Counted from the first letter of the stretch, positions 1 to 49,591 are shown. The stretch: DNA of 64,000 nt from Candidatus Magasanikbacteria bacterium RIFOXYB2_FULL_38_10 (GCA_001783145.1 MFQT01000002.1:24941-88940), one strand, 5' to 3'. Notes: generated by a model not told the origin, from the sequence alone. Program-made: numbers and translations.

Positions 1-3000
1 AATGATTACCTTATTACTAAAAGACGTCCAATGCTCTATAACGCTTTTGTTATCTATTGAACAAGCTCTAAAGTCATCTTCTTTAGCAGGATCATCCCAA
101 CACCCCCCAATTACAACAGCGCACGTACCATTACACCACCCCCAATTATCCAAGACTTGGACTTTGGGTTTAAAGTGGCACTGGCTATTTATATTATCCC
201 AGCAGTTGGTAATAACATTGGCGGAGCAAACGGGCAAGGACAAGCCATTATTAGCTAGGCACTCATACACGTGCTTATATGTAAAATATCCCTCTTCGCA
301 GGCCTCGGCAGAGTTGCCAAAATGCAGGCGGTCATTTGGAGAGGAAGGGGAAGAGCAGGAAATACCACTACCACAATCAGCATTACTGTTGCAAGGCTTA
401 TTTAAATTACTATCGCAGACTTTTTCGTCACTGCTCTCGCACACCGGCTTGTGATTCTTATACCACCCCCTAGACTCATACACCGAACCATCTCCCCAAT
501 CTATGGCCACGCGGGTAATGGGCATTTGATCATTGTCGGCATAGGCGTAGAAGGCTGCGGTGACTACGGGAGAAGATCCGTTGTAAGTGATATCTTGATT
601 GTCAACATAACCGTTGTTGAAGTTTAGGCTAAACATGTTAACTGTCCCCCAAGTAAAGCTGTTGTTGCCGGCCGGGTTTAAAGAGTAGATTTTAGGAGGA
701 TGCGGAGTAATAGCGGCACTGAGATTGTTTATTGTTTGAGTAGCACCACTATCTCCTTGCGACTTGTCGCGGTTGCTCCAACCACTACCCAATAATTCAT
801 ATTTATTTTCATTCCACGCCCAAGTATTAAAACTGGAGGCAAACAACTCCTGCAAACGAAGAAAAGCGGCGTTAGGCTGTGAATGATCCCCAATATTCGG
901 CGTACTTGGACCACTGTCACCTATTGTTTGCGGAATTGTTTTGCCTTGCTCCAAAGAAATACCTACGCAAGTGCCTTGCTCCACCACTTCCATTCCCACG
1001 GTGTCGCCATAGGTTTTAGGGGGACAATCTTTAGACGAGCCGCACATCAGGCCGTGATTCAAGCCACCCACACACAAGCCGCGGATCTGGTTAGCATCGT
1101 CGCAAAGATATTTTACAACCCCGCCTTGGCAATCATCATCAACACTGCAATAACTGCCGTTTTTAGACCCTCCTTGGCAGGTACCAGATATATTTTGACA
1201 GGAAACATTATCTGGTATGCAGTCGCCATCTTCAGAGCATGACCACTTATATAAAGAAGAAAGTGGGGTTCCATAACAAACACCGGCAATACATTCAGCA
1301 AAACCATGGCTACTCACTCTGTCTAAACACCAAGCAGAATCAAAATTAGAACAGTCAATCGCCGGCTCTATCATCTGAAGCAAATTCTTCCCCGAATCAG
1401 TTTCACCGGCGCAAACTTTTTTGTCTAAGCTGGCGGACGGTTTACAAGTGCCATCATCAACCTGTTCATTACATGCCAAGTTGCCCTCATTTTTATTATC
1501 AGCCATATTACAAGGCTGATTAACATTGGGTCCGGCAGAACACAAGGCCGCCTTGCCGCAATCACCGCCATTGTCAGGACTGCAATTTAAAGGAGTGGCG
1601 CCGCCCGATTTTAGCCAAATGGGCCAATAACCTGCCACATACCAGCTTTGCAATTTATCCCAGTTGGTTTTGCTGTTGTCTATTAAGGTTAAATCTTTAG
1701 GATCTTGGCTTTGATCAAATGAACCAAAAGGCGTAAAAAATTGATTAAACGGTAATTTCATTTCTTTACCATTATCATCACCACCCAAAATATATCGGCC
1801 CTCTTGCCAAATTCTATCGGTACGGGCTTTGGCTTTAAAACCAAACACTGAGCTCTGCACATCCGGATTAACTGGATTATCCTGCACAACTTGCCTAATA
1901 TCCGTGCACACTTCTGTTAAATAAAAATCCAATTCCGCCTTAAATCCTCCGCTTTGTGTGGATCCGTCGCAAGTTTTTGAATTCATTGATTTTAATTTGC
2001 CGGTTGTTTTATCAAAAGTGACTCTAAAAGCAATAGCGTTAGAGTCTGTATTATCATAAAAGTTTTCACACTTGCTCTGAGTTAGAAAATTAAAAGAACC
2101 TTCGGTTCTATTATCCGGCCCATTATGCCAAAAAAACTCCAAGGAAATATCCCCGTTATTTTCCAGTTTAGTCCCGGACCAATAGTAACCGTCGCCATTG
2201 GAGACACCGTTTAATTTTTGTTTGGTGAAAGTCAATAATTCATTGGCCGGATAATCTTTTCCATTAATAAAGGAAAGGGGGGTTAAGCCCATAGCCACTA
2301 CTTCGCTAAAATTAAGATCTTTCTCAACAGAAGTTAAGAAAAATGTTTGTTCCTTCCATAAATCAGCAGTAAAAGGCACCCAACTTTTACTATTTTTACA
2401 CTCTTCTTCTGTATTTATGTTGGAAATTTCTGTTCCATTTGAAGAAAAACAACGCCCCCGACCGGATGTTTCCCAAGTATTTTTAGGTTCGGCACGGGTA
2501 ATTAATTTATAACTACTGCCGTATCCAAAAGTGTCCCCGTTGTCCTGAAACGGCAGAGAAGCATTCCCTTTAGCCTGGACGCACCAAAATTTCCCCGAAC
2601 CCTCCGGGGGGTAATACCCGGCTTCTCTGTTTAAAGCATACAAATCAACTCCGCCCTTAGGTACTGCCAAAGGATACCACATCACGCATTTGTCAGTGGA
2701 ATCTTTAAGCAGACAGTAGCCATTCCAGCCAAATTCACGCGAAATTTTTCTATCGGTTAAACAAGAAGCGCCAAGAGTAATGCCGCCGGGTTTTTGATTA
2801 GCCGGACGGTCATCAGAACAATCACTGACATCAACGCAAGGCAAGCTTTTTTTAGATTGTCCATTCTCTAAAAATCCGCCGTCGCAAACGCCTTTATTTT
2901 CTAAAAGCTGATTGGCTAAATAATACTTGGTGATGGCGGCTTTGTCACTGCCGCCATATTCCACTTTGGCAAAAGAGCAAAAATCAGGATAAAGGGAAGG

Positions 3001-6000
3001 ATTCAAACGCGAAGAGTTGGCTTCCGAAGGTATTTCCGCTGAAGCAAACCCGCGGCAAGATTCAGCGATTGGGCCACCGCCATTATACACTGGTTGGTTA
3101 TTGATGGCTTTTAAGCCGTTAGAAGCAACCAAATCGGCAATCTGTCGGCCGTTATAAATGGAATAGCCGCTAAAATCTTTAACAGAAAAAGCTCCATTAT
3201 TAGCAGAAACATAAGCCGAAAGATCTAAAATTTGACCAATGGCGGGTGTTTTATTTGTGTCCTCAACCCAATGACCGCATTGACCTAGAAGCTCATCACT
3301 ATTATTAACTTCGGCCGCTGAAGCAATTTTGTCGCAATTTTTAAGCTCAGTGCAGATATCAACCGAATTACCGTTTTTCAGCACTTTCATAGTGGAGGCG
3401 CAAGCAAGCCATTCGCCGCAAACACGATCCCGCTTAACTTTTAAAATTACGTTAGCATCATTGGCATCAAGATTATCATTGGTACAATTGAGATTGTCTG
3501 CTGAAGTTTTTTCACCCTCCACCCCACAATCAATCGGATTAACCTTTTGATAATTGTTTTGTTGGCTTAAATTATAAGTTGCATCAGCGTTCCACAATCT
3601 ATCGCCTTTGGCGGTTTCATTAAACAAAACGCAACCTTGTTGCAAACTGGCACTGCCACCGCAAGAACCGCGGTCAATTTTTTCATTGTTAATCACATAG
3701 TAAGATTGGCCGGATAAATTGCCGGAAGCGGTTCCCGCGCCTACCGGATCCACAAATTCCGAACAGCCATTTTGCGCGGCGGGACACAAACCCACAGCGC
3801 CATTATAGGTAGCATCTCCGTTTTTAAAAATTTTATAATTGGTGCCCGCATAACAACTGTCAGTTGTACCTTTAATCACCCAGCCACCGGTAGAGCCATT
3901 AATTTTATCTTTCCATTCGCATAAACGATTGCCAAAAACAGTCGGGTCTTTAAAATAATCAGATCCGCCTTGGTCCGTGGTGTATTGATTACAGCCTTCG
4001 GCCTCTTGGCTGCACAAAATTTTGCCATAATTATCCGGCTGATCTTTAAGATACACCGTGGTAGAGGCCTGCACAGCTCCATTCGCGGAGTAGTCAATCA
4101 AACCCAAAGCGCGACAACCTGCGTTATCACTAGAGCATTGAAAAGCGGGGCTGTTTACTAAATACACCATCCGATCAGTGGGGACTAAAATACTCTCTGA
4201 ATCAGATGATAAATTAACACCATAAGAATGACCTTCGGCATCTGTAGTTGCAGCTACGCTGTTTAAATTATGTAATTCAGGGCCTAATTCAGTTAGATTT
4301 TTACCCAAACCAACATAATTAAATCTACAAAAAGTTTGTCCCGGAAGTACATCACATTTATGCTCGCCATTTTTGTCTTTACAATCAATTACTTGGTTTG
4401 AATATGTCTGCGGCGAGGAAAGAAGAGAACACTTGGCATTAAACAGCGTAGCCGAAGTTGTTTCGGTGTCAAATGTTTCAACCAGCTCCTCGCAACCTAC
4501 TGCTTCCTCACGACAAATACTGCTAAAAAATTTAACCGCCACAGTATCTCCTTTGCGGTTGGAATAAGATTCACAGCCAAGTTGAGCCTGCGGTGCCAAT
4601 CTTAACGGATTGGCGGAATTTCCTCCCAAAGACGAGCCAAAGGGATCGCCATTAACATTGTCGCAAGATGAAGGAGTGGCCCAGGAATCCTTAATCACAT
4701 AAACGTTATCCGTCATTTGTTTTACAACAACATTATCAAGATAAAAAATGTTCCCCTGGCCGCCAAATTGCAAAGTGGAAGAAGAAACTTCTTGATCCCA
4801 AGAGACGTTAAAATCGGCAGTAAAAACCGCCCAATTATTGGTTAAATTAAAGCCCCTATTTTCTTGAGAAACAAAATTGGAGCCGGCCAAACTTGTGCCA
4901 AACTGTACTGCTAAATTTAAGGAAGCATCTTGACTCTTAGCCCAAAAAGAAATAGAAATCGTTTTATTTTTTTCTAAAATATTGGTGAAACCGGAAGCGC
5001 CAATTACTTTCAAAGATTTTCCACCGACCACGGTTGCCTCGGAACTGATTGTGGCAGTTGTCCCCGTCCAGTCCAAAGAGGAAACAGTGCTACCAACCGT
5101 GCCTGTTTCAAAATCTTGAAAATAAATGGTTTGAAAATTATTACCCGCGTTGCCTTTGTAAGCGCGGCAACCCACAGCCGTAGCCGGACAAGACTTGGCC
5201 TCCAAAGAAATAAATGAGTGGATACAAATTCCTCTCGCCGAATCCCAAGCTCCGCCGGTAGCATCACAAGAGATTTGATCGGACAGACTTTTGCGATAAT
5301 TTTTGCATTCGCTTGGAGAAACTGTGACGGTTTTAGAATAAAGGCGATAAGATTTTTCACCCTGACGATTATAAAATTCGCGACAATCCGGATCAAAATC
5401 TTTGCCTAAGGTAATTTTATCCGCGTAAGTACTGGCACTACAAATATTTTCATAAAAAGTAAGTGTCAAAGCATCGCCGGTATTATAGGCCGGCTCGCCG
5501 GTATGGCCACTTCTGGTATCTTTCTTTAAAATGTATGTTTTTAATTGATAACCGGAAGTATCACTTCCCTCCCAAGTATAAAAAGTGTCTCCTTCGGCGG
5601 CAATTTTACTGCAAGATTTTATCTGGCTAAAATAAGCTTTTTGTTCTCCGCCAGCCGCTTGAGTTTCTATATTAACAAATTCTTCGCAACCTACGTTTTC
5701 CAATTTGCACGATTTGGCGTTGGCAGGGATAAAATAAGCATTGGCATTGCCAGAAAATTGAGTAATTGGCTGTTCTATATATGTTTCATAGCCAACGCAC
5801 TCATTTGGGCATAAATCCCCTGTTGTCAAAACACCGGGAATTGTCGGATTGCCATTTGACGGAGTGTAAAGCTCGCAACTTTTTTCTTCTGCACTGCAAA
5901 CTGTGGCAAAACGAGAACATTGAATTTTTTGTTCCGCAGTCAATCCATTGGAAATTTTATACAAATCGGATTTATTAACCGGCCAAGCTAAAGTAGAACT

Positions 6001-8037
6001 GCTTAAAGTATTTGTATTGGGTGTACCTGTGGGGACCAAATTTTCACCATAACAATTATAAAACTCGGGCGCTTTTTTTAAATTAAGATTTTCTCCAACT
6101 ACGCCTTCAGCCTCGCGGATAAATTTAGAGCACCCTTCATTTTCATTGCCGCATCTTTCAACTGAACGATTAAAATAAATTTTAGGATCACCGGCGCCGG
6201 ATTGCCAATTCCAATCTCCGCCCAAATAAGCGGCTGAAATCGCATAAGAACGGCAACCGGAATTATCCGCCGTACAAATACCTCTATCAATGGTATTGGC
6301 TAAAAAACTCATGGCCTGACCTTGGCTACTGGCATAACCGGTACAAGTATTGAATTGTTCATCGCAACTATCGGCACCCAATTGCCAAAAATTTTTCTCT
6401 CTTAAACAATAGCCCCAAAAATTACATTGTCCGGTTTGTGAATTTTCACCAACACAACTTTGCACATCGGTGCAGGATTTGGCTCTTTGTCCGGGAGTAT
6501 CGGCCGTAGGAGGGTACAGAGCCAAGGAACTGTTAACTTCGGCGGAGCAACGGGCCTTAGGAGCGACAATCAGCCAATTAGGATCAATCAGATGATAATA
6601 TTGACTGCTACTATCATAAAAACCGGCCACCACATCTTTTAAAAATACTTTTTGCCCAAGAGAGACTGCTTTCTGCGCGGCTATTTCCCAGCCCAATGAC
6701 AAAATTCTAAAAAAACGCAATTTAATAAGATTGTCATAACAGTAAGCGTTAGGTTTGCAAGATCCCTTTGGCAAAAGTTCCCAGTCTCCATGCAATTTGC
6801 CCGAAGAGAAATTTAAAGCTTCACCGACAGTTAAGGGGGTTCCCGCTTGGGCTAAAGATAAAATTTCTTGAAAATCGGAATCCAGGGCACCACAATAGGG
6901 GCCGTTGTTGGTAGCGCAATCGGGGGTCAATTCTGTAGCCACATATTGATAATCCCCAATTTCGCCAAAGGTGGGTTTAACAAAATCGGCAAAGGTGGCT
7001 TCGGACGCCTCGCGATTACCCACCACCTGCGCCTGCTCATCATTGGGCGCTGATTTTTTACAAGTCCAAGAACCGTCTTTTACGCCGCAGGCTATCCCGG
7101 TGATTAATTGTCCCACAGAAAGCAAGCCTTTTTTTCTTAATTGCTCTGCCAATTGATCGGAAAGAGTGTTGGTGAACATAGCGGCGGCATCGCCCAAAAC
7201 ACCAGCGATGTTGCCCAGATTTAAATCATCTTTTGTGGCTTTTACTTCTTCGGTTTTTTGTGTTTTTGAATCACTTATAACGCTTTTTGCTTGTTCTTCG
7301 TTAACAGCTACAGGAGCCGTCGCATCACCCCCTACCGGAGAGGCCGTATTTTTCATACTACCATCAGAGTCGGCTTTATCTCGAGCTTTTTGTTCATCTT
7401 CGGCCCGTATTTTATCCAAAGCTTCCAATGTTTCTAAAGATAAAGACAGGCCATTTTGCCCCGGCTGAAAAGACATTCCCACCTGGCTCCAAGCACCGGC
7501 TGTACCCAAATTACTATAGGCATTTTGTATTTCTCTCCAATTACAACGCGGCTGAGGATCCAGGGTGTTGTACATTTTTAATTTTATTCCCAAATTATAG
7601 GCAGGTATGCCGGGATTACACAAATTAATGCCGTATTTTTGTAAAAATTGCGTTTCATCGCCAAAATAGCCAATAGCATCGGCTGCTGCCTGCAAACCGG
7701 CGTTTTCAAAATAACCGGCCGCGTCAGTGTACCACATCGGCCCCTTGTCATAGTTGCCGCTGGCCAGCCAAATGGCTGTGTCCCTGGACATTTTATTGAC
7801 AAAATTCCTAAAAGACTTCATTAAAGCCCTGCCTGCCGCTTGGCCAATATTTACTTTTAAATCTTTACCGATAGCAGTTATTTTAGTCCACAAACCAGTA
7901 GCATCAGCCACGGGATCCGTCACTGTAAACTGCGCTCTAGCCGACCACGGCATTCCCAAACTTCCAATCAATACAAAAAATAAAAAAAATATTGCAATTT
8001 TATTTTTGTGATTTTTTATTTTTTCTTGGCGCGTCAT
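1..8037 (-). CDS. giant secreted cysteine-rich surface protein, N-terminal >2678 aa (3' end of gene lies beyond position 1)
   Basis: ATG at 8037 (revcomp of cat 8035-8037), 7 nt downstream of the stop of the co-oriented upstream gene. Manual translation of the minus frame (codon high coordinate = 0 mod 3) stays open to position 1. No ORF >130 aa exists in any other frame across 8 kb. N-terminus MTRQEKIKNHKNKIAIFFLFFVLIGSLGMPWSARAQ is a signal/anchor. The body is G/N/S/T-rich with recurrent Cys pairs. A jelly-roll CBM4_9-like segment (YFQDFETGTVGS...GGKSLKV...FYLDNVVVKQ) lies at about 4700-5140. Confidence 0.8.
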   Translation of the reverse strand, partial: MTRQEKIKNHKNKIAIFFLFFVLIGSLGMPWSARAQFTVTDPVADATGLWTKITAIGKDLKVNIGQAAGRALMKSFRNFVNKMSRDTAIWLASGNYDKGPMWYTDAAGYFENAGLQAAADAIGYFGDETQFLQKYGINLCNPGIPAYNLGIKLKMYNTLDPQPRCNWREIQNAYSNLGTAGAWSQVGMSFQPGQNGLSLSLETLEALDKIRAEDEQKARDKADSDGSMKNTASPVGGDATAPVAVNEEQAKSVISDSKTQKTEEVKATKDDLNLGNIAGVLGDAAAMFTNTLSDQLAEQLRKKGLLSVGQLITGIACGVKDGSWTCKKSAPNDEQAQVVGNREASEATFADFVKPTFGEIGDYQYVATELTPDCATNNGPYCGALDSDFQEILSLAQAGTPLTVGEALNFSSGKLHGDWELLPKGSCKPNAYCYDNLIKLRFFRILSLGWEIAAQKAVSLGQKVFLKDVVAGFYDSSSQYYHLIDPNWLIVAPKARCSAEVNSSLALYPPTADTPGQRAKSCTDVQSCVGENSQTGQCNFWGYCLREKNFWQLGADSCDEQFNTCTGYASSQGQAMSFLANTIDRGICTADNSGCRSYAISAAYLGGDWNWQSGAGDPKIYFNRSVERCGNENEGCSKFIREAEGVVGENLNLKKAPEFYNCYGENLVPTGTPNTNTLSSSTLAWPVNKSDLYKISNGLTAEQKIQCSRFATVCSAEEKSCELYTPSNGNPTIPGVLTTGDLCPNECVGYETYIEQPITQFSGNANAYFIPANAKSCKLENVGCEEFVNIETQAAGGEQKAYFSQIKSCSKIAAEGDTFYTWEGSDTSGYQLKTYILKKDTRSGHTGEPAYNTGDALTLTFYENICSASTYADKITLGKDFDPDCREFYNRQGEKSYRLYSKTVTVSPSECKNYRKSLSDQISCDATGGAWDSARGICIHSFISLEAKSCPATAVGCRAYKGNAGNNFQTIYFQDFETGTVGSTVSSLDWTGTTATISSEATVVGGKSLKVIGASGFTNILEKNKTISISFWAKSQDASLNLAVQFGTSLAGSNFVSQENRGFNLTNNWAVFTADFNVSWDQEVSSSTLQFGGQGNIFYLDNVVVKQMTDNVYVIKDSWATPSSCDNVNGDPFGSSLGGNSANPLRLAPQAQLGCESYSNRKGDTVAVKFFSSICREEAVGCEELVETFDTETTSATLFNAKCSLLSSPQTYSNQVIDCKDKNGEHKCDVLPGQTFCRFNYVGLGKNLTELGPELHNLNSVAATTDAEGHSYGVNLSSDSESILVPTDRMVYLVNSPAFQCSSDNAGCRALGLIDYSANGAVQASTTVYLKDQPDNYGKILCSQEAEGCNQYTTDQGGSDYFKDPTVFGNRLCEWKDKINGSTGGWVIKGTTDSCYAGTNYKIFKNGDATYNGAVGLCPAAQNGCSEFVDPVGAGTASGNLSGQSYYVINNEKIDRGSCGGSASLQQGCVLFNETAKGDRLWNADATYNLSQQNNYQKVNPIDCGVEGEKTSADNLNCTNDNLDANDANVILKVKRDRVCGEWLACASTMKVLKNGNSVDICTELKNCDKIASAAEVNNSDELLGQCGHWVEDTNKTPAIGQILDLSAYVSANNGAFSVKDFSGYSIYNGRQIADLVASNGLKAINNQPVYNGGGPIAESCRGFASAEIPSEANSSRLNPSLYPDFCSFAKVEYGGSDKAAITKYYLANQLLENKGVCDGGFLENGQSKKSLPCVDVSDCSDDRPANQKPGGITLGASCLTDRKISREFGWNGYCLLKDSTDKCVMWYPLAVPKGGVDLYALNREAGYYPPEGSGKFWCVQAKGNASLPFQDNGDTFGYGSSYKLITRAEPKNTWETSGRGRCFSSNGTEISNINTEEECKNSKSWVPFTADLWKEQTFFLTSVEKDLNFSEVVAMGLTPLSFINGKDYPANELLTFTKQKLNGVSNGDGYYWSGTKLENNGDISLEFFWHNGPDNRTEGSFNFLTQSKCENFYDNTDSNAIAFRVTFDKTTGKLKSMNSKTCDGSTQSGGFKAELDFYLTEVCTDIRQVVQDNPVNPDVQSSVFGFKAKARTDRIWQEGRYILGGDDNGKEMKLPFNQFFTPFGSFDQSQDPKDLTLIDNSKTNWDKLQSWYVAGYWPIWLKSGGATPLNCSPDNGGDCGKAALCSAGPNVNQPCNMADNKNEGNLACNEQVDDGTCKPSASLDKKVCAGETDSGKNLLQMIEPAIDCSNFDSAWCLDRVSSHGFAECIAGVCYGTPLSSLYKWSCSEDGDCIPDNVSCQNISGTCQGGSKNGSYCSVDDDCQGGVVKYLCDDANQIRGLCVGGLNHGLMCGSSKDCPPKTYGDTVGMEVVEQGTCVGISLEQGKTIPQTIGDSGPSTPNIGDHSQPNAAFLRLQELFASSFNTWAWNENKYELLGSGWSNRDKSQGDSGATQTINNLSAAITPHPPKIYSLNPAGNNSFTWGTVNMFSLNFNNGYVDNQDITYNGSSPVVTAAFYAYADNDQMPITRVAIDWGDGSVYESRGWYKNHKPVCESSDEKVCDSNLNKPCNSNADCGSGISCSSPSSPNDRLHFGNSAEACEEGYFTYKHVYECLANNGLSLPVCSANVITNCWDNINSQCHFKPKVQVLDNWGWCNGTCAVVIGGCWDDPAKEDDFRACSIDNKSVIEHWTSFSNKVII

Positions 8038-8044
8038 AGCCAAA

Positions 8045-8779
8045 TTATAACTGTTTAATTAAATCAAGCAAAGCCTGATCGTCTAAACCATCTAAGGTCT
8101 CTTTAGGAATACCTTTTTCTAATAAGCTTTTGCGCAAAGCTTTTAAATCCACATTACTAATATCTAAAGAAAAATCCGATGATTCTGAATTATTAGCCGC
8201 CGTAGATGTGGAAGAGACAAATTCTTTAAAAAAAGCCAACAAATCGTTATCGGAAAATTTTTCCAATTCTTTGGAATCTATTCCATTCTGAATTAAGAAA
8301 TCGCGCAAAACTTTAGGGTCGGGATTAGAACCCAAAAGATTCTGTAAAAGTATCTGATCGGCGGTCGGCAACTCTGAAACGGATATCTCCAAGGAAGAGG
8401 TGGCTGTATTAGCGGCCGCTTGATTTTGCACTAAACTGCCATAACAATCTTGTCCTTTGGGACAATTGGGATCACTGCCGGAATCGGCTTCCGTTTTATC
8501 ATTTAATCCATCGGAATCGGTATCTGTTAAATAAGGGCTGGTTTGATAAATATATAACTCGTCATAATCTTTTAAGCCGTCGGCATCCGTGTCTTTTTTC
8601 TTTAGTTCTTCATTGGCAAAATTTTGATCAAAAGATATTTGTTCGCCGACGGAATGTTGCAAAGCAAAAAGCGCAAAGGGAGTTTTTAAATTGTTGCCCA
8701 TTTGCCTAAAACCTAAATAAACAACAAAGACCGCCAAAACAACCAAACCCAAAAAGGCCAGTTTTTCTTTTCTTGTCAT
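8045..8779 (-). CDS. membrane-anchored calcium-binding protein with thrombospondin type-3-like DxDxDG repeats
   Basis: The ORF-track start at 8833 is TTG. Internal ATG at 8779 is preceded by GGAGAG and gives MTRKEKLAFLGLVVLAVFVVYLG, a TM anchor. Repeats DTDADGLKDYDE and DTDSDGLNDKTEADSGSD lie at about 8468-8593. The stop is 7 nt from the giant gene start. Confidence 0.6.
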   Translation of the reverse strand: MTRKEKLAFLGLVVLAVFVVYLGFRQMGNNLKTPFALFALQHSVGEQISFDQNFANEELKKKDTDADGLKDYDELYIYQTSPYLTDTDSDGLNDKTEADSGSDPNCPKGQDCYGSLVQNQAAANTATSSLEISVSELPTADQILLQNLLGSNPDPKVLRDFLIQNGIDSKELEKFSDNDLLAFFKEFVSSTSTAANNSESSDFSLDISNVDLKALRKSLLEKGIPKETLDGLDDQALLDLIKQL

Positions 8780-8924
8780 TTCTTTTTGCTCTCCGCTCGT
8801 TGACATTTTAATAATGATTTTTTTGTTAAACAATCGGGTCTTACTCCTCTATATTATATCTTTTTAATCCCCATTTAACAAGGAGATATCCACAAAAAAC
8901 TTTTTATCTCTAAAACTCAACTTT

Positions 8925-14041: not shown

Positions 14042-16390
14042 TCATCCTTTAATTTTATCTACTAAATTATCTCTATAATAAGCACGGAGGCGGCAGATTT
14101 TGGAACAATTTTTAACTAAACAGCGTTTGTTTTCTAAATTGGCACTCCGCCACAATTCTTCTGGTGCCTTATCTTTCAAAGAAGCGAAAGTAATTCCGGT
14201 TTTATAGCAAAAAAACGGACGGCCCGCAGGATCAAAATTAAAAGTGCGATAAGCCAAGTGGCAAGGCCAAGCCACAGTTTTACCGGGATTTAAAAAATAT
14301 TCTTCAAAAGATAACAAATTTTTAACCGAGTTGGTAATTAAAGCGCCATTTCTTTTTTGTTTAATAAGCCAATTAAAAAAATCTTTTACGGCCTCTGGCT
14401 TTTGCGGCCATAAGGGATCATTTATAAACCAATTCTCCTGCGCGTAATCGCCCTTAAAATTTTCATCCAAAGCTTGGATGTTAACAAAAAAACCATTGGC
14501 CCGGGCAAAACTGACTAATTTTTTAGCATCTTCCCCTATATTTTTTTCATTGAGCAAGACCCCCAAACAAATTTTCATTTGGCTCCCCTGTCTTTGTTTG
14601 GCCTCGGCCAAATCAAGAATCGCTTCCTTGGCTTTTTCGTGAGCCCAAGGAATCTGCCGCAGGCTATTATGAATTGCCGGATCAAAACTGTATAAAGAAA
14701 TTCTAATTTCTTCAATTCCCGTAGCTACAATTTTGGCCGCCATTTCTTTATTAATCAAATAACCATTACTTTCCAAAATAACTCTAAAATCATTGATCTT
14801 TAAAAAATTTAAAATCTCCAGAATGTCCGGCCTAATCAAAGGCTCTCCTCCGCCCAGACTAATTAAATAGCCCGGACCAACCCATTTTCTTAAATCACTG
14901 ATGATTTTTTTCCATTCTACCGTGTTTAACTCATTTCTTTCCGCACATTTCCAGATATCACAGTGACTACACCTAAAATTGCAATTATAAGTGATGATTA
15001 AATCGCTACCCTTGGGTTTAGAAAGCGGGAAATTAAAAAAATAAGACAATTTTTCTAAAATAGAATTAAAGATTTTTTTAAAATAATTATTTTTCATAAA
15101 ATCAGACGGTTCACCCAAGACACCTTCTCCCCCAAAATTCCACACCCCCAATCCTAAAGCCAACAGCATCAAACCGCTAAAAGAACTCCATAAATAATGA
15201 TCAAACAAACTTAAAATTAAAAAAAACAATAAAATTTCTCCGCCTAATTTATTTTTCTTTAATAAAAAAAACAAAAAAATAATCAATAAAATAGTTCCTG
15301 TGATTCCTAGTTCTATAAAAACCAAAACTAAAGCATTGTGTACGGGCTGGTAACCGCTGGTTTTGTCAATTAAAGAAAACTTTTGAGCGGCAACCAGGGT
15401 ATAGTTTCCCAAACCCGTCCCCCAAAAGATATTATTTTTAAAAATTTGATAAGATTCCGTGTAGCCATTTAATCTTTGGATTTTAGACCACTCTTCCAGT
15501 TGTCCGGTAACTTCTACCCTATTTCTTAAAAGAGGCAGAAAGATTACAGAAAGAAGCGCTAAAAAAATTAAACTAAAACTGAAATTCAAAATTAAACGCC
15601 GACGGATAAAAGGAGAAAAATTTTTTTTTATCACTCTAAAAAACCAAAAAAATAAAGACACGGCCAGGGCCAGCCAGGCCGAGCGGGAAAAAGAAAAAAA
15701 TAAAGCGGCAAGAAAAATAAAATTAAAAAATAATATTCCGGCACCACTTTTTTTAAATACCCCGACAACATCATTCCTTTCTTTAATTAAAAGAAAACAG
15801 ATTATTAGGCCAAGTGCCAGGAAAGCGCCCAGAGCATTGGGGTGGGTAAAAGTACCATAGGCTCTAAGCCAGCGTCCGCCATTTTCTAAAACTGCCGTGC
15901 CTAAAGTTCCGGAATGATGCACAGTTAAACCCAAATAGCGGCTGGCAAAAGTATTTTGAGATAAAAATTGATAGATGCCCAAAAAGGCCGCCGGAAGTAG
16001 ACCTAAGACAAAACAATAAGCGGCTTTTAAATTATTAATAGCTCCACTACTGAGCAAAATAAAGAAAGCCCCAGCTTCTAAAAGATGCAAAGCTTGTTGA
16101 AAAAAAACCAATTTATCACCGGAAACAATACCGGAAACAAATAATAAAATTGCCAAAGCTGAAATTGGTACTCGATTATTTTTTAAAAAACCTAACCAAT
16201 TATTTTTTTTCCTCTTATTTAAAATTCCTGCCAACAAAATCAACCACAACAAAACTTCCTCGGCATAAATGCCTATAATGCCATACTCCCAAACAGCCCC
16301 ATTTAAAAAACCGCGGCGCAAAATGAGCCTGGTTTGCCAAGGCAGTAAAAATATAAAAAGATAAATTAAAAAATTATAGAGCTTGGTCAT
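14042..16390 (-). CDS. fusion protein: O-antigen ligase-like (Wzy_C) polytopic membrane domain + C-terminal radical SAM / SPASM-like domain
   Basis: The N-terminal roughly 440 aa have more than 10 TM helices with Wzy_C-type motifs (SRSAWLAL; HPNALGAFL; HNALVLVFIELGITG). The C-terminus carries CNFRCSHC (CX3CX2C), the LGGGEPL SAM-binding glycine motif, and C-terminal Cys clusters (FFCYKTG...CLVKNCSKIC). Confidence 0.7.
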   Translation of the reverse strand: MTKLYNFLIYLFIFLLPWQTRLILRRGFLNGAVWEYGIIGIYAEEVLLWLILLAGILNKRKKNNWLGFLKNNRVPISALAILLFVSGIVSGDKLVFFQQALHLLEAGAFFILLSSGAINNLKAAYCFVLGLLPAAFLGIYQFLSQNTFASRYLGLTVHHSGTLGTAVLENGGRWLRAYGTFTHPNALGAFLALGLIICFLLIKERNDVVGVFKKSGAGILFFNFIFLAALFFSFSRSAWLALAVSLFFWFFRVIKKNFSPFIRRRLILNFSFSLIFLALLSVIFLPLLRNRVEVTGQLEEWSKIQRLNGYTESYQIFKNNIFWGTGLGNYTLVAAQKFSLIDKTSGYQPVHNALVLVFIELGITGTILLIIFLFFLLKKNKLGGEILLFFLILSLFDHYLWSSFSGLMLLALGLGVWNFGGEGVLGEPSDFMKNNYFKKIFNSILEKLSYFFNFPLSKPKGSDLIITYNCNFRCSHCDIWKCAERNELNTVEWKKIISDLRKWVGPGYLISLGGGEPLIRPDILEILNFLKINDFRVILESNGYLINKEMAAKIVATGIEEIRISLYSFDPAIHNSLRQIPWAHEKAKEAILDLAEAKQRQGSQMKICLGVLLNEKNIGEDAKKLVSFARANGFFVNIQALDENFKGDYAQENWFINDPLWPQKPEAVKDFFNWLIKQKRNGALITNSVKNLLSFEEYFLNPGKTVAWPCHLAYRTFNFDPAGRPFFCYKTGITFASLKDKAPEELWRSANLENKRCLVKNCSKICRLRAYYRDNLVDKIKG

Positions 16391-37742: not shown

Positions 37743-37818
37743 TGGTGCGCCTGGATGGATTTGAACCATCGACCCTGCGATTATAAGTCGCATGCTCTAA
37801 CCACTGAGCTACAGGCGC
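37743..37818 (-). tRNA. Ile-type tRNA with genomically encoded UAU anticodon (tRNA-Ile2-like), CCA encoded
   Basis: GCGCCTGTAGCTCAGTGGTTAGAGCATGCGACTTATAATCGCAGGGTCGATGGTTCAAATCCATCCAGGCGCACCA. Near-identical scaffold to bacterial ileX (LAU), but position 34 is T, not C. Confidence 0.75.
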
Positions 37819-40337: not shown

Positions 40338-41933
40338 TTAGTCTGCCGGAGTTACCCGCAGAATTTCTGCAATAGTTGTAAGACCTTGCTTCACCTTAGC
40401 CAAACCGGCCTGGCGCAAAGTCATCATGCCCAAACTTTTGGCCTCTTGTCTTAATTCAGCCGGCGAGAGACCACGCAAAAGAGCTTTCTTGAATTCCTCA
40501 GACATAGGCAATACTTCTTGAATTCCAACAAACCCCTTAAAACCAGTATTGCCACAAGTTCGGCAACCCCCACCCTTCTTTAATTTGAGAGTCACTAAGT
40601 CAGTTGATGTAAAACCAACAGAACTAAGACCCTCCATTGGGCTGTCATCATCTTCTCTGCAATCTTTGCAAATCCGACGCGCCAATCTTTGCGCGCAGAT
40701 CAAGGACAAAGAAGACGCCAGAATGAAGGGCGAGAAGTCCATATCAAGCAATCTGCCAACCGCAGAAGAAGCATTCTCGGTCTGGAAGGAAGAAAGAACC
40801 AGCCGCCCGGACAAAGAAGATTTGATTAGAGCTTCAATCGTTTCTCTGTCCCAAGGCGATTCCCCCACCATCATGACATTGGCACCCTGAGATTCCAAGT
40901 GCCGAATGGCTGCTTCAAGGTTGAAGCCAATTCTTGTATTTAGCTGTACCTGATTAATACCGCCAAAATCCTCCAAAATAGGGTCTTCAATCGTAAAGAT
41001 ATTCCGGTTAGGATCATTAAGTTCGGTAAGAAGAGCGTACAAAGTGGTATACCGACCGGAACCAACCGGACCGGTCACCAAAATCAAACCCGAGGATTTT
41101 TTAGCCGCCTGTGTTACTTGTTCAAGCTGAGCTGTTTCAAACCCCAGATTTTCCAAGTGCTTTCGCCCATTAGATCTATCCAGAATGTGCAGTACCACAC
41201 TTTCGCCATGAGCGACAGGCATAGTACTTACATTAAAGTCGACGTTCTTGTCCCTACCCATTACCAGTTGGATGCGGCCTTTTTGGGGCAAAAACCGATC
41301 AGTAATATCAAGATCAGCCATGATCTTGATTCTGGCAACTATGGCATCCTTCAGTTTCTGTGGAGGCCGCATAACTTCAAATAATTGACCTTCTATGCGA
41401 TAACGCACGCGAAAATTACGGGAGTAGGGCTCTATATGGATACTGGAAGCTCCGCGCTTTACCGCATCCACCAGAATCAAATTGACCAATCTGACTATTG
41501 GAACCTCTTGCGAGGATGAATACCCCATTCTTTCTTCTTCCCGATTATCAGGTTCTTCATCAGATGAATCCACGGGAAAACTACTCAAATCAACAGGAGT
41601 TTCTTCTTCAAAAGATTTCCCAAATCCAGAAGCAAGGTGTGGTGCCTCTACAAAACCAACCCTATAATATCTGTCCAAGGCTCGTTCAATTTTATCAGCA
41701 GGAATATTTGCAACTTCAACTTTATAACCAGTCAAAAACTTTATATCTTCAATGGCATCAGTATTACTAGGACCAACCATAGTGATAGTGAGGGTTTTGT
41801 CAACGATGCAAAGCGGCACGAGTTTAAACCGCAAGGCCACTTCTCGTGGTACTAAAGCCAACACATCAGATGGCACTTCATACTCATCTAGGTTGAAACC
41901 GGTAAAGAAATTAACACCAGTAGACTCGACCAT
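40338..41933 (-). CDS. GspE/PilB-family secretion ATPase homologue with degenerate catalytic motifs, GC-rich (about 48%)
   Basis: GSPII_E N-domain. Walker A is GPVGSGRYTT (K changed to R). Asp box is ESPWDRET (insertion). His box is SFQTENA (H changed to Q). Tetracysteine CKDC...CRTC is retained. RBS AGAGGT. Confidence 0.75.
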   Translation of the reverse strand: MVESTGVNFFTGFNLDEYEVPSDVLALVPREVALRFKLVPLCIVDKTLTITMVGPSNTDAIEDIKFLTGYKVEVANIPADKIERALDRYYRVGFVEAPHLASGFGKSFEEETPVDLSSFPVDSSDEEPDNREEERMGYSSSQEVPIVRLVNLILVDAVKRGASSIHIEPYSRNFRVRYRIEGQLFEVMRPPQKLKDAIVARIKIMADLDITDRFLPQKGRIQLVMGRDKNVDFNVSTMPVAHGESVVLHILDRSNGRKHLENLGFETAQLEQVTQAAKKSSGLILVTGPVGSGRYTTLYALLTELNDPNRNIFTIEDPILEDFGGINQVQLNTRIGFNLEAAIRHLESQGANVMMVGESPWDRETIEALIKSSLSGRLVLSSFQTENASSAVGRLLDMDFSPFILASSLSLICAQRLARRICKDCREDDDSPMEGLSSVGFTSTDLVTLKLKKGGGCRTCGNTGFKGFVGIQEVLPMSEEFKKALLRGLSPAELRQEAKSLGMMTLRQAGLAKVKQGLTTIAEILRVTPAD

Positions 41934-47275: not shown

Positions 47276-48694
47276 TTACTTATTGATAAAACAACGAGTT
47301 GGATCAATTGGAAGACATAACCCCGCGTCGCTATTGTCTAAGGATGGAAATTCAGATCTTGTTAAATTAATATTACAATTAAATCCATCCTCCAAATTTT
47401 TAAGGCTAAAAAGATTTTCTTTGGGAACCAGCACTGAATTTCTTGGCGAAGAAGAATCTTTTTGATAGGACAAAGCTTTACATGACCAATATTCAAAACT
47501 ATCCGAAGGCAATAATAATTTACTTAAATTAACATTACATAAACCATTTTGTTGACCTAGGGCAAACCAATCGTCACAGCCACCTGCCGCGCCTCCCTCA
47601 TCATTTACTTCAACTCCTAAATAAAAACCCAAAACACCGCCGCTACCGCAAGTGGAATTTATTTGATTTTCCAACCGACTTTTAGTTACATTAAATTTAT
47701 ATTTTTGGGAATTGGCACCAAGATTCTCGGCGGCAATTGATTGCACGAAAAACGTATCACCGTTATTTTTACAAATACCAATTAACTCAATTTTATTATC
47801 AATATAAGGAAATGGGACATCGGTAGAAGATATTACTCCCGATAAATTTCCCTCTTGGCAAAAATAGCTATTTTCACTTTGCTTCACGCAAACCTTGGGA
47901 ACAGCAGAATTAAAATCATTGCAAGCGTGTCCCCAGCAAGTTTTATTATCGGAATTTTCCCAAAAAAACTCATGACCGCAACGCGGGCCTTGCAAAAAAC
48001 CGCTTAAAGCGGGACTGCTGGAAAAAAGGTTAGTCTGGGCATCATATTTGTAATCCCCTTCTGGAACTTCCAGAGAGCTCTTAAAACTTCCCGCAAAAGC
48101 AACCATGGTTTTTAAAGGTAAATCTTTGCAAAATTCCACAGCAAGCGCGGCAGGCCTGACCATGTAAGTTTTTGGCAGACGCAACCTAACCAAATCCGGA
48201 TTGATCGTATAAAGCAAAGTATAAGCTCCGAGAAGCAAAAGCAAACCAAAAATAGCACTGCTGATTCTAGTTTTGGCGGCCGTCACTTTTTCCGCAGAAC
48301 CGGCCGAGGTTAAATAAATAAAACCACCAATAATAATTAAAATTACGGCAATCAAGCCGCCTACGCTAAGTGCAAAAAGATATATGGTTTTTAAATAATC
48401 ACCCAAATCAGAAAATTTAATCTTACCGCCTATGGTAATTTCCGCATCGGTTTGGCCGGCTGGAATGCAATAACCTGCATTGGGGCCGCAAACATTATCC
48501 AAACCCCCCACTAGAAAATTATCAGCGGAAAACTTCCATTTATTTTCTTCAATCATGGCTTTGCAACTGCTATAAGTCCAGCACAAAGGATTAGCAACCG
48601 ATCCAGACTCGCCGGTTCCCTGCGCCAAAACTGTCGGACTGAAAAAAAATAAACCCAAAACAATCGCTACCCGGAAAATTTTTTTGGATTTCAT
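47276..48694 (-). CDS. secreted cysteine-rich protein with internal two-helix hydrophobic hairpin (VirB2/TrbC-pilin-like)
   Basis: Signal peptide [26 protein letters not shown]. Hairpin [65 protein letters not shown]-terminal roughly 280 aa are Cys-rich, like the giant protein. Confidence 0.5.
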
Positions 48695-48883: not shown

Positions 48884-49591
48884 CTACTTAATCAATTTCT
48901 CCCATTCTATTAAAGGAATGGCTCCTTCCACCTTTTGCCCATTCACAAAAAAAGTAGGTGTACCACTAATTCCTAAAGAATAGCCGTCAAACCAATCCAT
49001 TCCCACCTTTTGTTCTGCTAAGGCGCTTTCCAGGCATTTAGTAAATGATGGCACATCCAGACCAATTTGTCCAGCATAGCTCTTTAAATCTTCTAAAGTA
49101 AAGTTTTTTTGATTTAAAAAAAGCTTATCGTGATAAGCCCAAAATTTATTTTGCTTGCCGGCACAAAAAGCCGCCTCGGAAGCTTCTAATCCCCCTTTAT
49201 GAGCTTCATCTTGCAAAGGAAAATGCCTAAAAGTAAAACTCACTTGCTTGGGATATTTAGTTAAAAGCTCCCTCATAACGGAAAAAGCTTGCTTGGAAAA
49301 GGGACAGGTAAAATCGGCAAATTCCACAATTTGCAAGGTAGCGGACAAAGAACCCAGGGTTGGAGCCTCGTCATTTTTTATTTTAGTTGAGTCAAATTTT
49401 TGACTAGCCTCATTTTTATTAGGCAAATTAATTTCACTGAAATCGCCGGAGCTTAAATCTACAACTTCTCCTCTTTTAACCTTAATATAAAACTGGGTCG
49501 TAAGATAAATAAAATAAAGCAAGAATAAAGTTAAAAAAGACCCTAAGGCAATTAAAAAAAATTTTTTCATATGCTTCCAACTATTATACAC
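48884..49591 (-). CDS. membrane-anchored DsbA-like thiol:disulfide oxidoreductase
   Basis: N-terminal TM; thioredoxin CxxC (FADFTCPFSKQA); DsbA-size. Confidence 0.7.
   Translation of the reverse strand: MYNSWKHMKKFFLIALGSFLTLFLLYFIYLTTQFYIKVKRGEVVDLSSGDFSEINLPNKNEASQKFDSTKIKNDEAPTLGSLSATLQIVEFADFTCPFSKQAFSVMRELLTKYPKQVSFTFRHFPLQDEAHKGGLEASEAAFCAGKQNKFWAYHDKLFLNQKNFTLEDLKSYAGQIGLDVPSFTKCLESALAEQKVGMDWFDGYSLGISGTPTFFVNGQKVEGAIPLIEWEKLIK

Follow-up and report, generated by a model that had tools for sequence, protein, structure and literature searches.

A giant cysteine-rich exported protein and its TSP3-type partner next to a type IV secretion system in Magasanikbacteria: a candidate host-contact module

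The first 8 kb of a 64,000-nucleotide stretch of DNA from Candidatus Magasanikbacteria bacterium RIFOXYB2_FULL_38_10 (GCA_001783145.1 MFQT01000002.1:24941-88940; hereafter the window) was confirmed to be one real gene, encoding a disulfide-rich exported protein of 2,681 residues, here called the giant protein. The gene occupies 1..8037 on the minus strand. Re-translation from the ATG at 8037 to base 1 gave 2,679 codons with 0 stops, in agreement with a preliminary description of the window that had reported this frame as open. At ~43% GC the per-codon stop probability is ~0.058, and an open run of such length was therefore calculated to arise by chance with a probability near 1e-70. The open reading frame (ORF) is missing from the ORF listing of the window because ORFs running off an end are omitted from it. 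The same description had credited the first 8 kb with spurious ORFs of 130 aa or less; short ORFs are indeed listed there, but one on the plus strand (2..454) has 150 aa.

A word-index search retrieved protein P0001, 100% identical to the giant protein, from a 21,959-bp Logan contig, L001. This contig stems from an independent assembly and shares 12,790 nt with the window without a single mismatch (window position = 12791 - L001 position). In L001 the protein ends in ...KVIITP followed by the stop, and the window is therefore short by just two codons and the stop codon. The earlier statement that the gene continues beyond the window is correct as to where it ends, but the window holds codons 1-2679 of 2681, so that the gene is essentially complete. 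The start of P0001 is annotated at M29; the ATG at 8037 was preferred because the hydrophobic signal segment of all homologues is retained only from there. Word-index searching also yielded 22 homologues of 2,568-4,084 aa, colinear with the giant protein down to 24% identity. The preliminary description had raised an in-frame stop, or a pseudogene array, as what might undo its reading of the region. A non-functional array or chance open frame can be given almost no credence, since the frame carries no stop, full-length colinear homologues keep the Cys and motifs, and the identical sequence recurs in L001. No point in its favour was found, and it was rejected.

The giant protein contains 110 Cys (4.1%, as compared with an average of 0.69% in the 30 other genes of the window), not the hundreds first reported. 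The paired Cys patterns described earlier were borne out: neighbouring Cys stand 6-7 residues apart (C-x6/7-C) 26 times, versus 7.2 +/- 2.5 in shuffles, and a module C-x3-[NEA]-x-G-C-x-x-[FYL] is repeated ~10 times across aa 558-1425. In a 22-member family alignment (24-50% identity, mean column identity of 19%), 34 of the Cys do not vary and a further 16 reach a conservation of at least 90%, which together is about half of all Cys. Being far better conserved than the mean column, the Cys argue for structural disulfides, of which the protein could form ~55.

Export of the protein is supported by a predicted signal peptide at aa 1-35 (7933..8037; this and all further parts of the gene are on the minus strand). 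It consists of a K-rich n-region and a hydrophobic segment at aa 11-33, followed by ARA/QF (the slash marks the putative cleavage site), and P-A-x-A is conserved family-wide at the cleavage region. The segment had been described as a signal or anchor peptide; it looks cleavable, and the protein would be exported by the Sec pathway. A hydropathy scan gave no further transmembrane (TM) segment, and no LPXTG motif, C-terminal TM segment or wall anchor was found in the giant protein, whose C-terminus reads ...KVIITP.

The mature protein begins with a low-Cys region, aa 36-345 (7003..7932), in which AlphaFold2 (AF2) predicts long helices at low confidence (predicted local distance difference test, pLDDT, 30-65). 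In the alignments C140 and C165 of this region are invariant and the motifs AYDxA..LASGG.G..P, GINLC.P and VKTP are conserved; searches of PDB, Pfam and NCBIfam gave 0 matches to it. A conserved alpha/beta domain at aa ~359-509 (6511..6963) is the best-predicted part (pLDDT 74-84) and carries the motifs CYxNLxKLRxxRIxPxGWExAA and HLIDPxWxxKAP, with L440, R441, G449, E451, A453, W488 and P493 near-invariant. The first Cys-hairpin region, aa 497-960 (5158..6549), is built of the C-x3-[NEA]-x-G-C-x-x-[FYL] repeats, and its Cys are invariant in the 22 homologues. A predicted jelly-roll domain at aa 965-1110 (4708..5145) separates it from the second Cys-hairpin region, aa 1125-1790 (2668..4665), where the Cys are conserved to ~aa 1784. 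A variable region at aa ~1840-2450 (688..2520) combines an N-rich low-Cys part with a stretch densely packed with Cys (aa 2152-2357); the region has an AF2 pLDDT below 50 and could not be aligned below ~35% identity in a BLASTP segment map. The C-terminal domain, aa 2450-2681 (1..687 for the part within the window), is again conserved, with the motifs MPIxxVxIDWGDG and DNWGWC and no PDB or Pfam match. Homologues are colinear across aa 1-650, 700-1640 and 2450-2681.

The jelly-roll domain agrees with the carbohydrate-binding module (CBM) 4_9-like segment that the preliminary description had placed at about 4700-5140. The giant protein itself gave no match to CBM_4_9 (PF02018) at E<=0.1 and lies below the gathering cut-off of 25.9 bits. 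The homologues P0007, P0012 and P0015 score 31.8-37.4 bits, above this cut-off, and the matches in P0007 and P0015 fall at the position equivalent to aa ~965-1100. An AF2 model of aa 30-1130, built with a 22-sequence alignment, had a mean pLDDT of 56 and three usable parts: the alpha/beta domain at aa ~359-509, aa ~819-909, and an all-beta sandwich at aa ~969-1109 (72-86). When these were compared with PDB by Foldseek, just aa ~969-1109 matched, with E ~1e-6 to 1e-7 and a TM-score on the target of 0.6-0.7 (2zew, 4xup, 8xmz and 9mui). The matched structures include CBM16 (2zew), CBM22 (4xup) and a porphyran-binding CBM (8xmz), and the glycan-binding RBD1 of the binary toxins CDTb/Ib is also matched. 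Judged by these models, aa 965-1110 is a CBM-type beta-sandwich jelly-roll fold, for which glycan binding is predicted. It resembles CBM4_9, CBM16 and CBM22 in its fold and through the PF02018 matches of its homologues, and differs from them in a sequence that lies below the Pfam threshold and in sitting within a non-enzymatic giant protein.

Searches over the remainder of the protein returned little. An AF2 model of aa 1500-2679 had a mean pLDDT of 48, and Foldseek gave no match to it below E 0.08. Pfam and NCBIfam searches with the whole giant protein gave noise alone (OCRL ASH, E 0.007; VirB5, E 0.077), and sequence searches of PDB gave nothing below E 0.2, either for the whole protein or for profiles of its N- and C-terminal domains, each built from 60 sequences. 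Among 60 N-terminal and 60 C-terminal segments of family members, Pfam and NCBIfam revealed no recurrent family beyond scattered near-misses to VirB5, TrbJ and DUF4141. The Myxococcus cysteine-rich repeat was tried as a candidate and rejected, with no match in NCBIfam at E<=0.1.

Immediately upstream of the giant gene lies its partner (8045..8833, minus strand), a 262-aa single-pass membrane protein with a TM segment at aa 22-46. Its stop is 7 nt before the ATG at 8037. The preliminary description had named a co-oriented thrombospondin type 3 (TSP3) Ca-binding membrane protein at this place, and both features were recovered: apart from the TM segment, the partner matches TSP3_bac (PF18884) at 28.3 bits (cut-off 25, E 1.6e-6) and has two repeats of the D-x-D-x-D-G Ca-binding type, DTDADGLKDYDE and DTDSDGLNDKTE. 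It also has a CPKGQDC pair and a helical tail. In the spacer between KsgA and the TSP3 gene a promoter-like element (TTGTTA-17-TATAAT, 10/12; 8853..8881, minus strand; L001 3910-3938) was identified by consensus match only. A TSP3-like gene stands directly upstream of the giant gene in all 75 of the 75 related loci with enough flank, at a median gap of 4 nt, and the pairing of the two genes is certain. The partner shares TSP3 Ca-binding repeats with Myxococcus CglD/MtsD, which act in Ca-dependent surface adhesion complexes, and weak NCBIfam matches to these were obtained (E ~2e-4). The likeness is confined to the repeat type, however: the partner has only 262 aa and one TM segment, and scores far below the family cut-offs.

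On its other side, the giant gene is followed in the same genome by the genes of a type IV secretion system (T4SS), a cluster that starts just left of the window and can be seen on L001. The preliminary description did not contain this cluster, the most informative context, which is past the window's left edge. In L001 the giant gene is followed by a bidirectional terminator-like hairpin with a 12-bp stem and by a convergent gene (L001 12914-14185, minus strand, ~120-1400 nt past window position 1) for a lipoprotein-like product (LSATAC/G) of 423 aa with 58 Cys (13.7%). Of 56 related loci, ~15 have small convergent Cys-rich ORFs with a lipobox in the corresponding position. Next is a gene for a VirB6/TrbL-like protein of 1,009 aa with 6 TM segments (L001 14393-17422, plus strand; TrbL E 3.9e-4), and then come a 602-aa unknown protein, PrgI (VirB3-like), a TraC-like protein and the VirB4 ATPase. 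The T4SS genes lie 1.6-7.6 kb beyond the stop of the giant gene; PrgI was matched at E 1.5e-8 and P-loop_TraG (VirB4) at E 5.6e-22, while the TraC-like gene was assigned from precomputed PF26593. L001 therefore holds the full set by which a Patescibacteria T4SS cluster is recognised, namely VirB4 with nearby PrgI/VirB3, TrsD/TraC-like and VirB6-like genes (Quinonero-Coronel et al., 2025).

The same gene order was found in seven independently retrieved loci, L001 and six obtained through diverged homologues (24-39% identity). It runs from the small TSP3 gene to the giant gene, variable inserts, the VirB6-like gene, unknowns, PrgI, the TraC-like gene and VirB4; the inserts comprise toxin-antitoxin pairs, a methyltransferase, an IS200 transposase and S6-SSB-S18-EF-P. 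Context hidden Markov models were built from the genes of the retrieved loci, and 80 GTDB loci were scanned with them. In 28 of the 35 loci that have 9 kb of flank or more (33 of 41 where 6 kb is taken as enough), the giant gene is followed on its own strand by a VirB6-like gene, at a distance of -54 to 7,490 nt. It overlaps or begins within 40 nt of the end of the giant ORF in 6 loci, and PrgI, TraC-like or VirB4 genes are present in 22 of the 35. The VirB6/TrbL-like proteins whose genes neighbour the giant gene are very long as well (760-1,650 aa): 6 TM segments fall within the first ~290 aa, and what follows is a lengthy extension devoid of Cys, an architecture reminiscent of the extended VirB6 paralogues of Rickettsiales. 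In one sublineage (L002, L007 and L008) an inserted block interrupts the T4SS cluster and parts the VirB6-like/unknown genes from PrgI; this block consists of a DNA methyltransferase (in L002 also an IS200/Y1 transposase) and then S6-SSB-S18-EF-P.

Taken with the properties of the two proteins, this neighbourhood leads us to favour, with moderate confidence, a reading in which the giant protein and its TSP3 partner form an extracellular host-contact (adhesin or lectin) module associated with the Patescibacteria T4SS. A functional tie of the pair to the T4SS is suggested by the shared strand, by operon-like spacing in several genomes, by thematic fit and by the retention of T4SS genes where the upstream genes differ. 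We infer the tie rather than observe it, because upstream housekeeping synteny is about equally conserved. The host-attachment machinery proposed in the preliminary description remains the most reasonable reading of an exported, disulfide-rich, lectin-type protein; what did not hold was the accompanying remark that it is unusual for a reduced genome.

Several observations weigh against the host-contact reading, and most of them speak at the same time for its main rival, that the giant protein is a general envelope protein, be it a coat of the S-layer kind or an adhesin that stands alone, which works independently of the T4SS and is adjacent to it through inherited gene order. KsgA, Sua5 or RF1 lies upstream in 57 of 70 loci, so that these housekeeping genes are about as conserved as the T4SS genes downstream. 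Among 37 loci with both flanks available, in which T4SS genes were sought within 10 kb downstream, 27 have housekeeping genes upstream and T4SS genes downstream, 7 have the housekeeping genes without T4SS genes, 3 have other genes upstream and T4SS genes downstream, and 0 have neither. In L017, one of the seven exceptions, the giant gene is followed by the remnant of an IS200-like element and by ordinary genes. With housekeeping synteny as strong and seven exceptions, the T4SS linkage could be clade-wide synteny. In the genome studied here, moreover, the terminator-like hairpin and the convergent gene stand between the giant gene and the T4SS genes, which are therefore not co-transcribed with it. 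Large Cys-rich surface proteins from Candidate Phyla Radiation (CPR) bacteria have been described without reference to a T4SS (PMC4736985). The host-contact reading is further weakened because the predicted glycan binding derives from the fold alone, because the AF2 models are poor outside the three domains (means of 56 and 48), because the Pfam, NCBIfam and PDB searches turned up no known T4SS adhesin with a similar sequence or fold, and because the family was sampled mainly within Magasanikbacteria-like lineages. Against a T4SS-independent role stand the downstream T4SS genes, which are all on the same strand as the giant gene, the spacing of 40 nt or less in several loci, and the 3 loci that keep their T4SS neighbours beside different upstream genes. 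S-layer proteins are usually highly abundant and simple in architecture. One copy per locus and an invariant dedicated partner argue against an S-layer. On balance a T4SS-independent envelope protein or adhesin appears possible but doubtful.

If the host-contact reading is followed, a two-gene unit would yield both the giant protein and its small Ca-binding TSP3 membrane partner. After signal cleavage the giant protein would have no membrane or wall anchor of its own, and its N-terminal helical region may be held by the membrane-anchored partner, by the VirB6-like platform, or by both. The long and presumably rigid body of C-x6-C hairpin modules would then project outward, carrying toward the host one jelly roll (more in some relatives), the fast-evolving aa ~1840-2450 and the conserved C-terminal domain. 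These domains may bind glycans of the host surface and so position the T4SS or its pilus.

A different use of the same neighbourhood would make the giant protein a Sec-dependent T4SS substrate, comparable to pertussis toxin and Ptl, that is released onto the host as a glycan-targeting or host-envelope-attacking effector. A signal peptide without an anchor of its own is what such a substrate would show. CBM-type domains commonly accompany enzymes acting on polysaccharides, and the predicted fold of aa 965-1110 is of this kind. In favour of this reading is also that most Patescibacteria T4SS clusters have no coupling protein and relaxase close by (PMC12102498). However, Pfam, NCBIfam and PDB profile searches found no catalytic or toxin domain in any segment, a conserved C-terminus with a variable interior is the opposite of polymorphic-toxin architecture, and the great length and ~55 potential disulfides favour a structural role. 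We regard a secreted effector as very unlikely.

The sub-threshold VirB5 matches bear on how the giant protein might meet the T4SS in the host-contact reading. Patescibacteria T4SS have VirB2-like pilins, but to our knowledge no VirB5 has been reported for them. According to current models, the pilus is nucleated by a pentamer of VirB5 that docks on VirB6 (PMC12857230). Family members of the giant protein match VirB5 (NF010434, TIGR02791), TrbJ (TIGR02780) and DUF4141 below threshold, and DUF4141 co-occurs with PF07996 in VirB5 proteins. The source of these near-misses is the mature N-terminus, A-x-A/Q-x-[PV]-V-x-[VD](P), which resembles the motif of the minor pilins VirB5/TrbJ. V-x-[DN]-P was found in 19-23 of ~200 family N-termini, and P-[VI] near the start in ~48. 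The family was compared by hhalign with a VirB5 alignment of 22 sequences (R46 TraC, R388 TrwJ and 20 relatives), and 20 columns at the cleavage site and mature N-terminus (A-Q-x-x-V-x-D-P) were aligned at a probability of 23%. Over the whole N-domain the probability was 4.6%, and against R46 TraC alone it was 1%. PF07996 gave no match in the giant protein or in 60 N-terminal segments. VirB5 homology was rejected on the strength of these results: a 20-column N-terminal match, 4.6% across the N-domain and no PF07996.

What the giant protein and VirB5 may share, as far as their sequences indicate, is a short N-terminal docking-type motif, which is a possible interpretation. Like VirB5/TraC/TrbJ, the giant protein has a Sec signal, the N-terminal motif, a helical region after it and linkage to a VirB6-like protein; unlike them, it is ten times larger and is unmatched by PF07996. 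It is conceivable, although we think it unlikely, that the giant protein is the missing VirB5-equivalent, whose N-terminus would dock on the VirB6-like platform and nucleate the VirB2-like pilus, and which would become a disulfide-armoured, glycan-recognising adhesin at the pilus tip. If so, it would be the host-recognition element of an essential epibiosis machine.

Patescibacteria T4SS form a distinct clade related to the monoderm MPF_FATA and are usually chromosomal, without a relaxase and with VirB2-like pilins (PMC12102498). A phylum-wide survey of these systems stated that 'no adhesins, such as PrgB, were detected' (PMC12102498). For growth on the host, Southlakia epibionticum requires its T4SS cluster, pilins included (PMC10633639, PMC11665869, PMC12857230). 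It is the one species in which this essentiality has been tested, and it belongs to Saccharibacteria. The giant protein and its TSP3 partner offer a testable candidate for the host-recognition part of the T4SS machine in Magasanikbacteria-like lineages.

Among known systems, PrgB and PrgC of pCF10 (MPF_FATA) are likewise large exported surface proteins beside a monoderm-type T4SS (VirB4, PrgI/VirB3, VirB6-like), and a role in making and stabilising the contact between cells is assumed for them. The giant protein resembles them in neither sequence nor domains, and it has no LPXTG motif and no polymer-adhesin (GbpC or antigen I/II) domain. It is Cys-rich where they are Cys-poor, and its associated T4SS is relaxase-less and chromosomal (PMC12102498). 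Peribacteria have large Cys-rich extracellular proteins for which attachment has been proposed (Anantharaman et al., 2016, PMC4736985). As with the giant protein, these are large, bear signal peptides, contain several % Cys and occur in ultrasmall bacteria; by description, the only level at which they were compared, they differ in an average length of 1,655 aa, in a 14-gene cluster and in having no link to a T4SS or TSP3.

The family of the giant protein is large. An exhaustive HMMER scan with aa 1-1200 retrieved representatives of 1,337 clusters, formed at 50% identity, at E<=1e-3, and of 1,098 at the stricter E<=1e-30; almost all of them have 2,500-3,800 aa. When GTDB was scanned with one genome for each species, a relative was present in at least 513 of these genomes, and by record title the carriers are mostly Magasanikbacteria and other Patescibacteria (Falkowbacteria, the Parcubacteria group, Paceibacter and 'Patescibacteria group'). 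Such numbers, together with the Cys-rich proteins noted before in CPR (PMC4736985), do not fit the earlier view that such proteins are unusual for a reduced genome. Neither Pfam nor NCBIfam offers a model for the family, and sources that name its members call them 'hypothetical protein'. It is a new, unnamed family within known kinds, namely CPR Cys-rich surface proteins and T4SS-linked adhesins, and a family definition for more than 1,000 clusters of 'hypothetical protein' is now open to annotators. Full-text searching, which did not reach most subscription journals, found no literature on the giant family, its TSP3 partner or their position beside a T4SS, and the T4SS association of the family appears to be undescribed. 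Many GTDB metagenome-assembled genomes with the CPR-specific locus (L013, L014, L016, L019 and others) are labelled 'uncultured Gammaproteobacteria bacterium ... binchicken'. Because their gene order and content are of the CPR type, this label is probably a placeholder or wrong.

Other genes of the window touch the same themes. The gene at 47276..48694 (minus strand) encodes a 472-aa protein with a signal peptide, two TM segments (100-135 and 143-165), 18 Cys and a Cys-rich C-terminal extension of ~300 aa. It had been described as a second Cys-rich secreted protein, which its Cys and signal peptide uphold, but it is more than Cys-rich: aa 103-162 match T4SS_pilin (PF18895) at 30.5 bits (cut-off 26.6), making it a VirB2-type T4SS pilin-domain protein, and NCBIfam gave a Mbov_0395 pilin-like match at E 6e-6. 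It is far larger than ordinary pilins of ~100 aa and lies ~39 kb from the T4SS cluster. It is possibly part of the same T4SS apparatus as the cluster beside the giant gene. A type IV pilus ATPase is encoded at 40338-41933.

At higher window coordinates, the gene at 48884..49591 (minus strand) encodes a membrane-anchored thioredoxin-fold protein. Its assignment as DsbA-like holds at family level (PF01323, E 1.3e-22), but C-P-F-S stands at the expected place of the CxxC active site, and from this motif the protein is judged not to be a canonical disulfide oxidase. There is also a weak likeness to the Rcas_1661 (seleno)lipoproteins, at E 1.5e-20 but short of the cut-off. With CPFS in place of CxxC, a dedicated role in oxidative folding is not supported.

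In the 782-aa product of the gene at 14042-16390 (minus strand), a Wzy_C O-antigen-ligase-type domain (aa 223-370) and a Radical SAM domain (aa 465-603) are joined in an unusual fusion. Every 2-kb bin of window 1-64000 has a negative GC skew (cumulative -4.5) and nearly all genes at 1-35 kb are on the minus strand, which is consistent with one replichore read against the orientation of the window. In most bacteria AUA is decoded by a lysidine-modified CAU tRNA. ARAGORN identified a tRNA-Ile with the anticodon TAT (UAU) at 37743-37818 on the minus strand.

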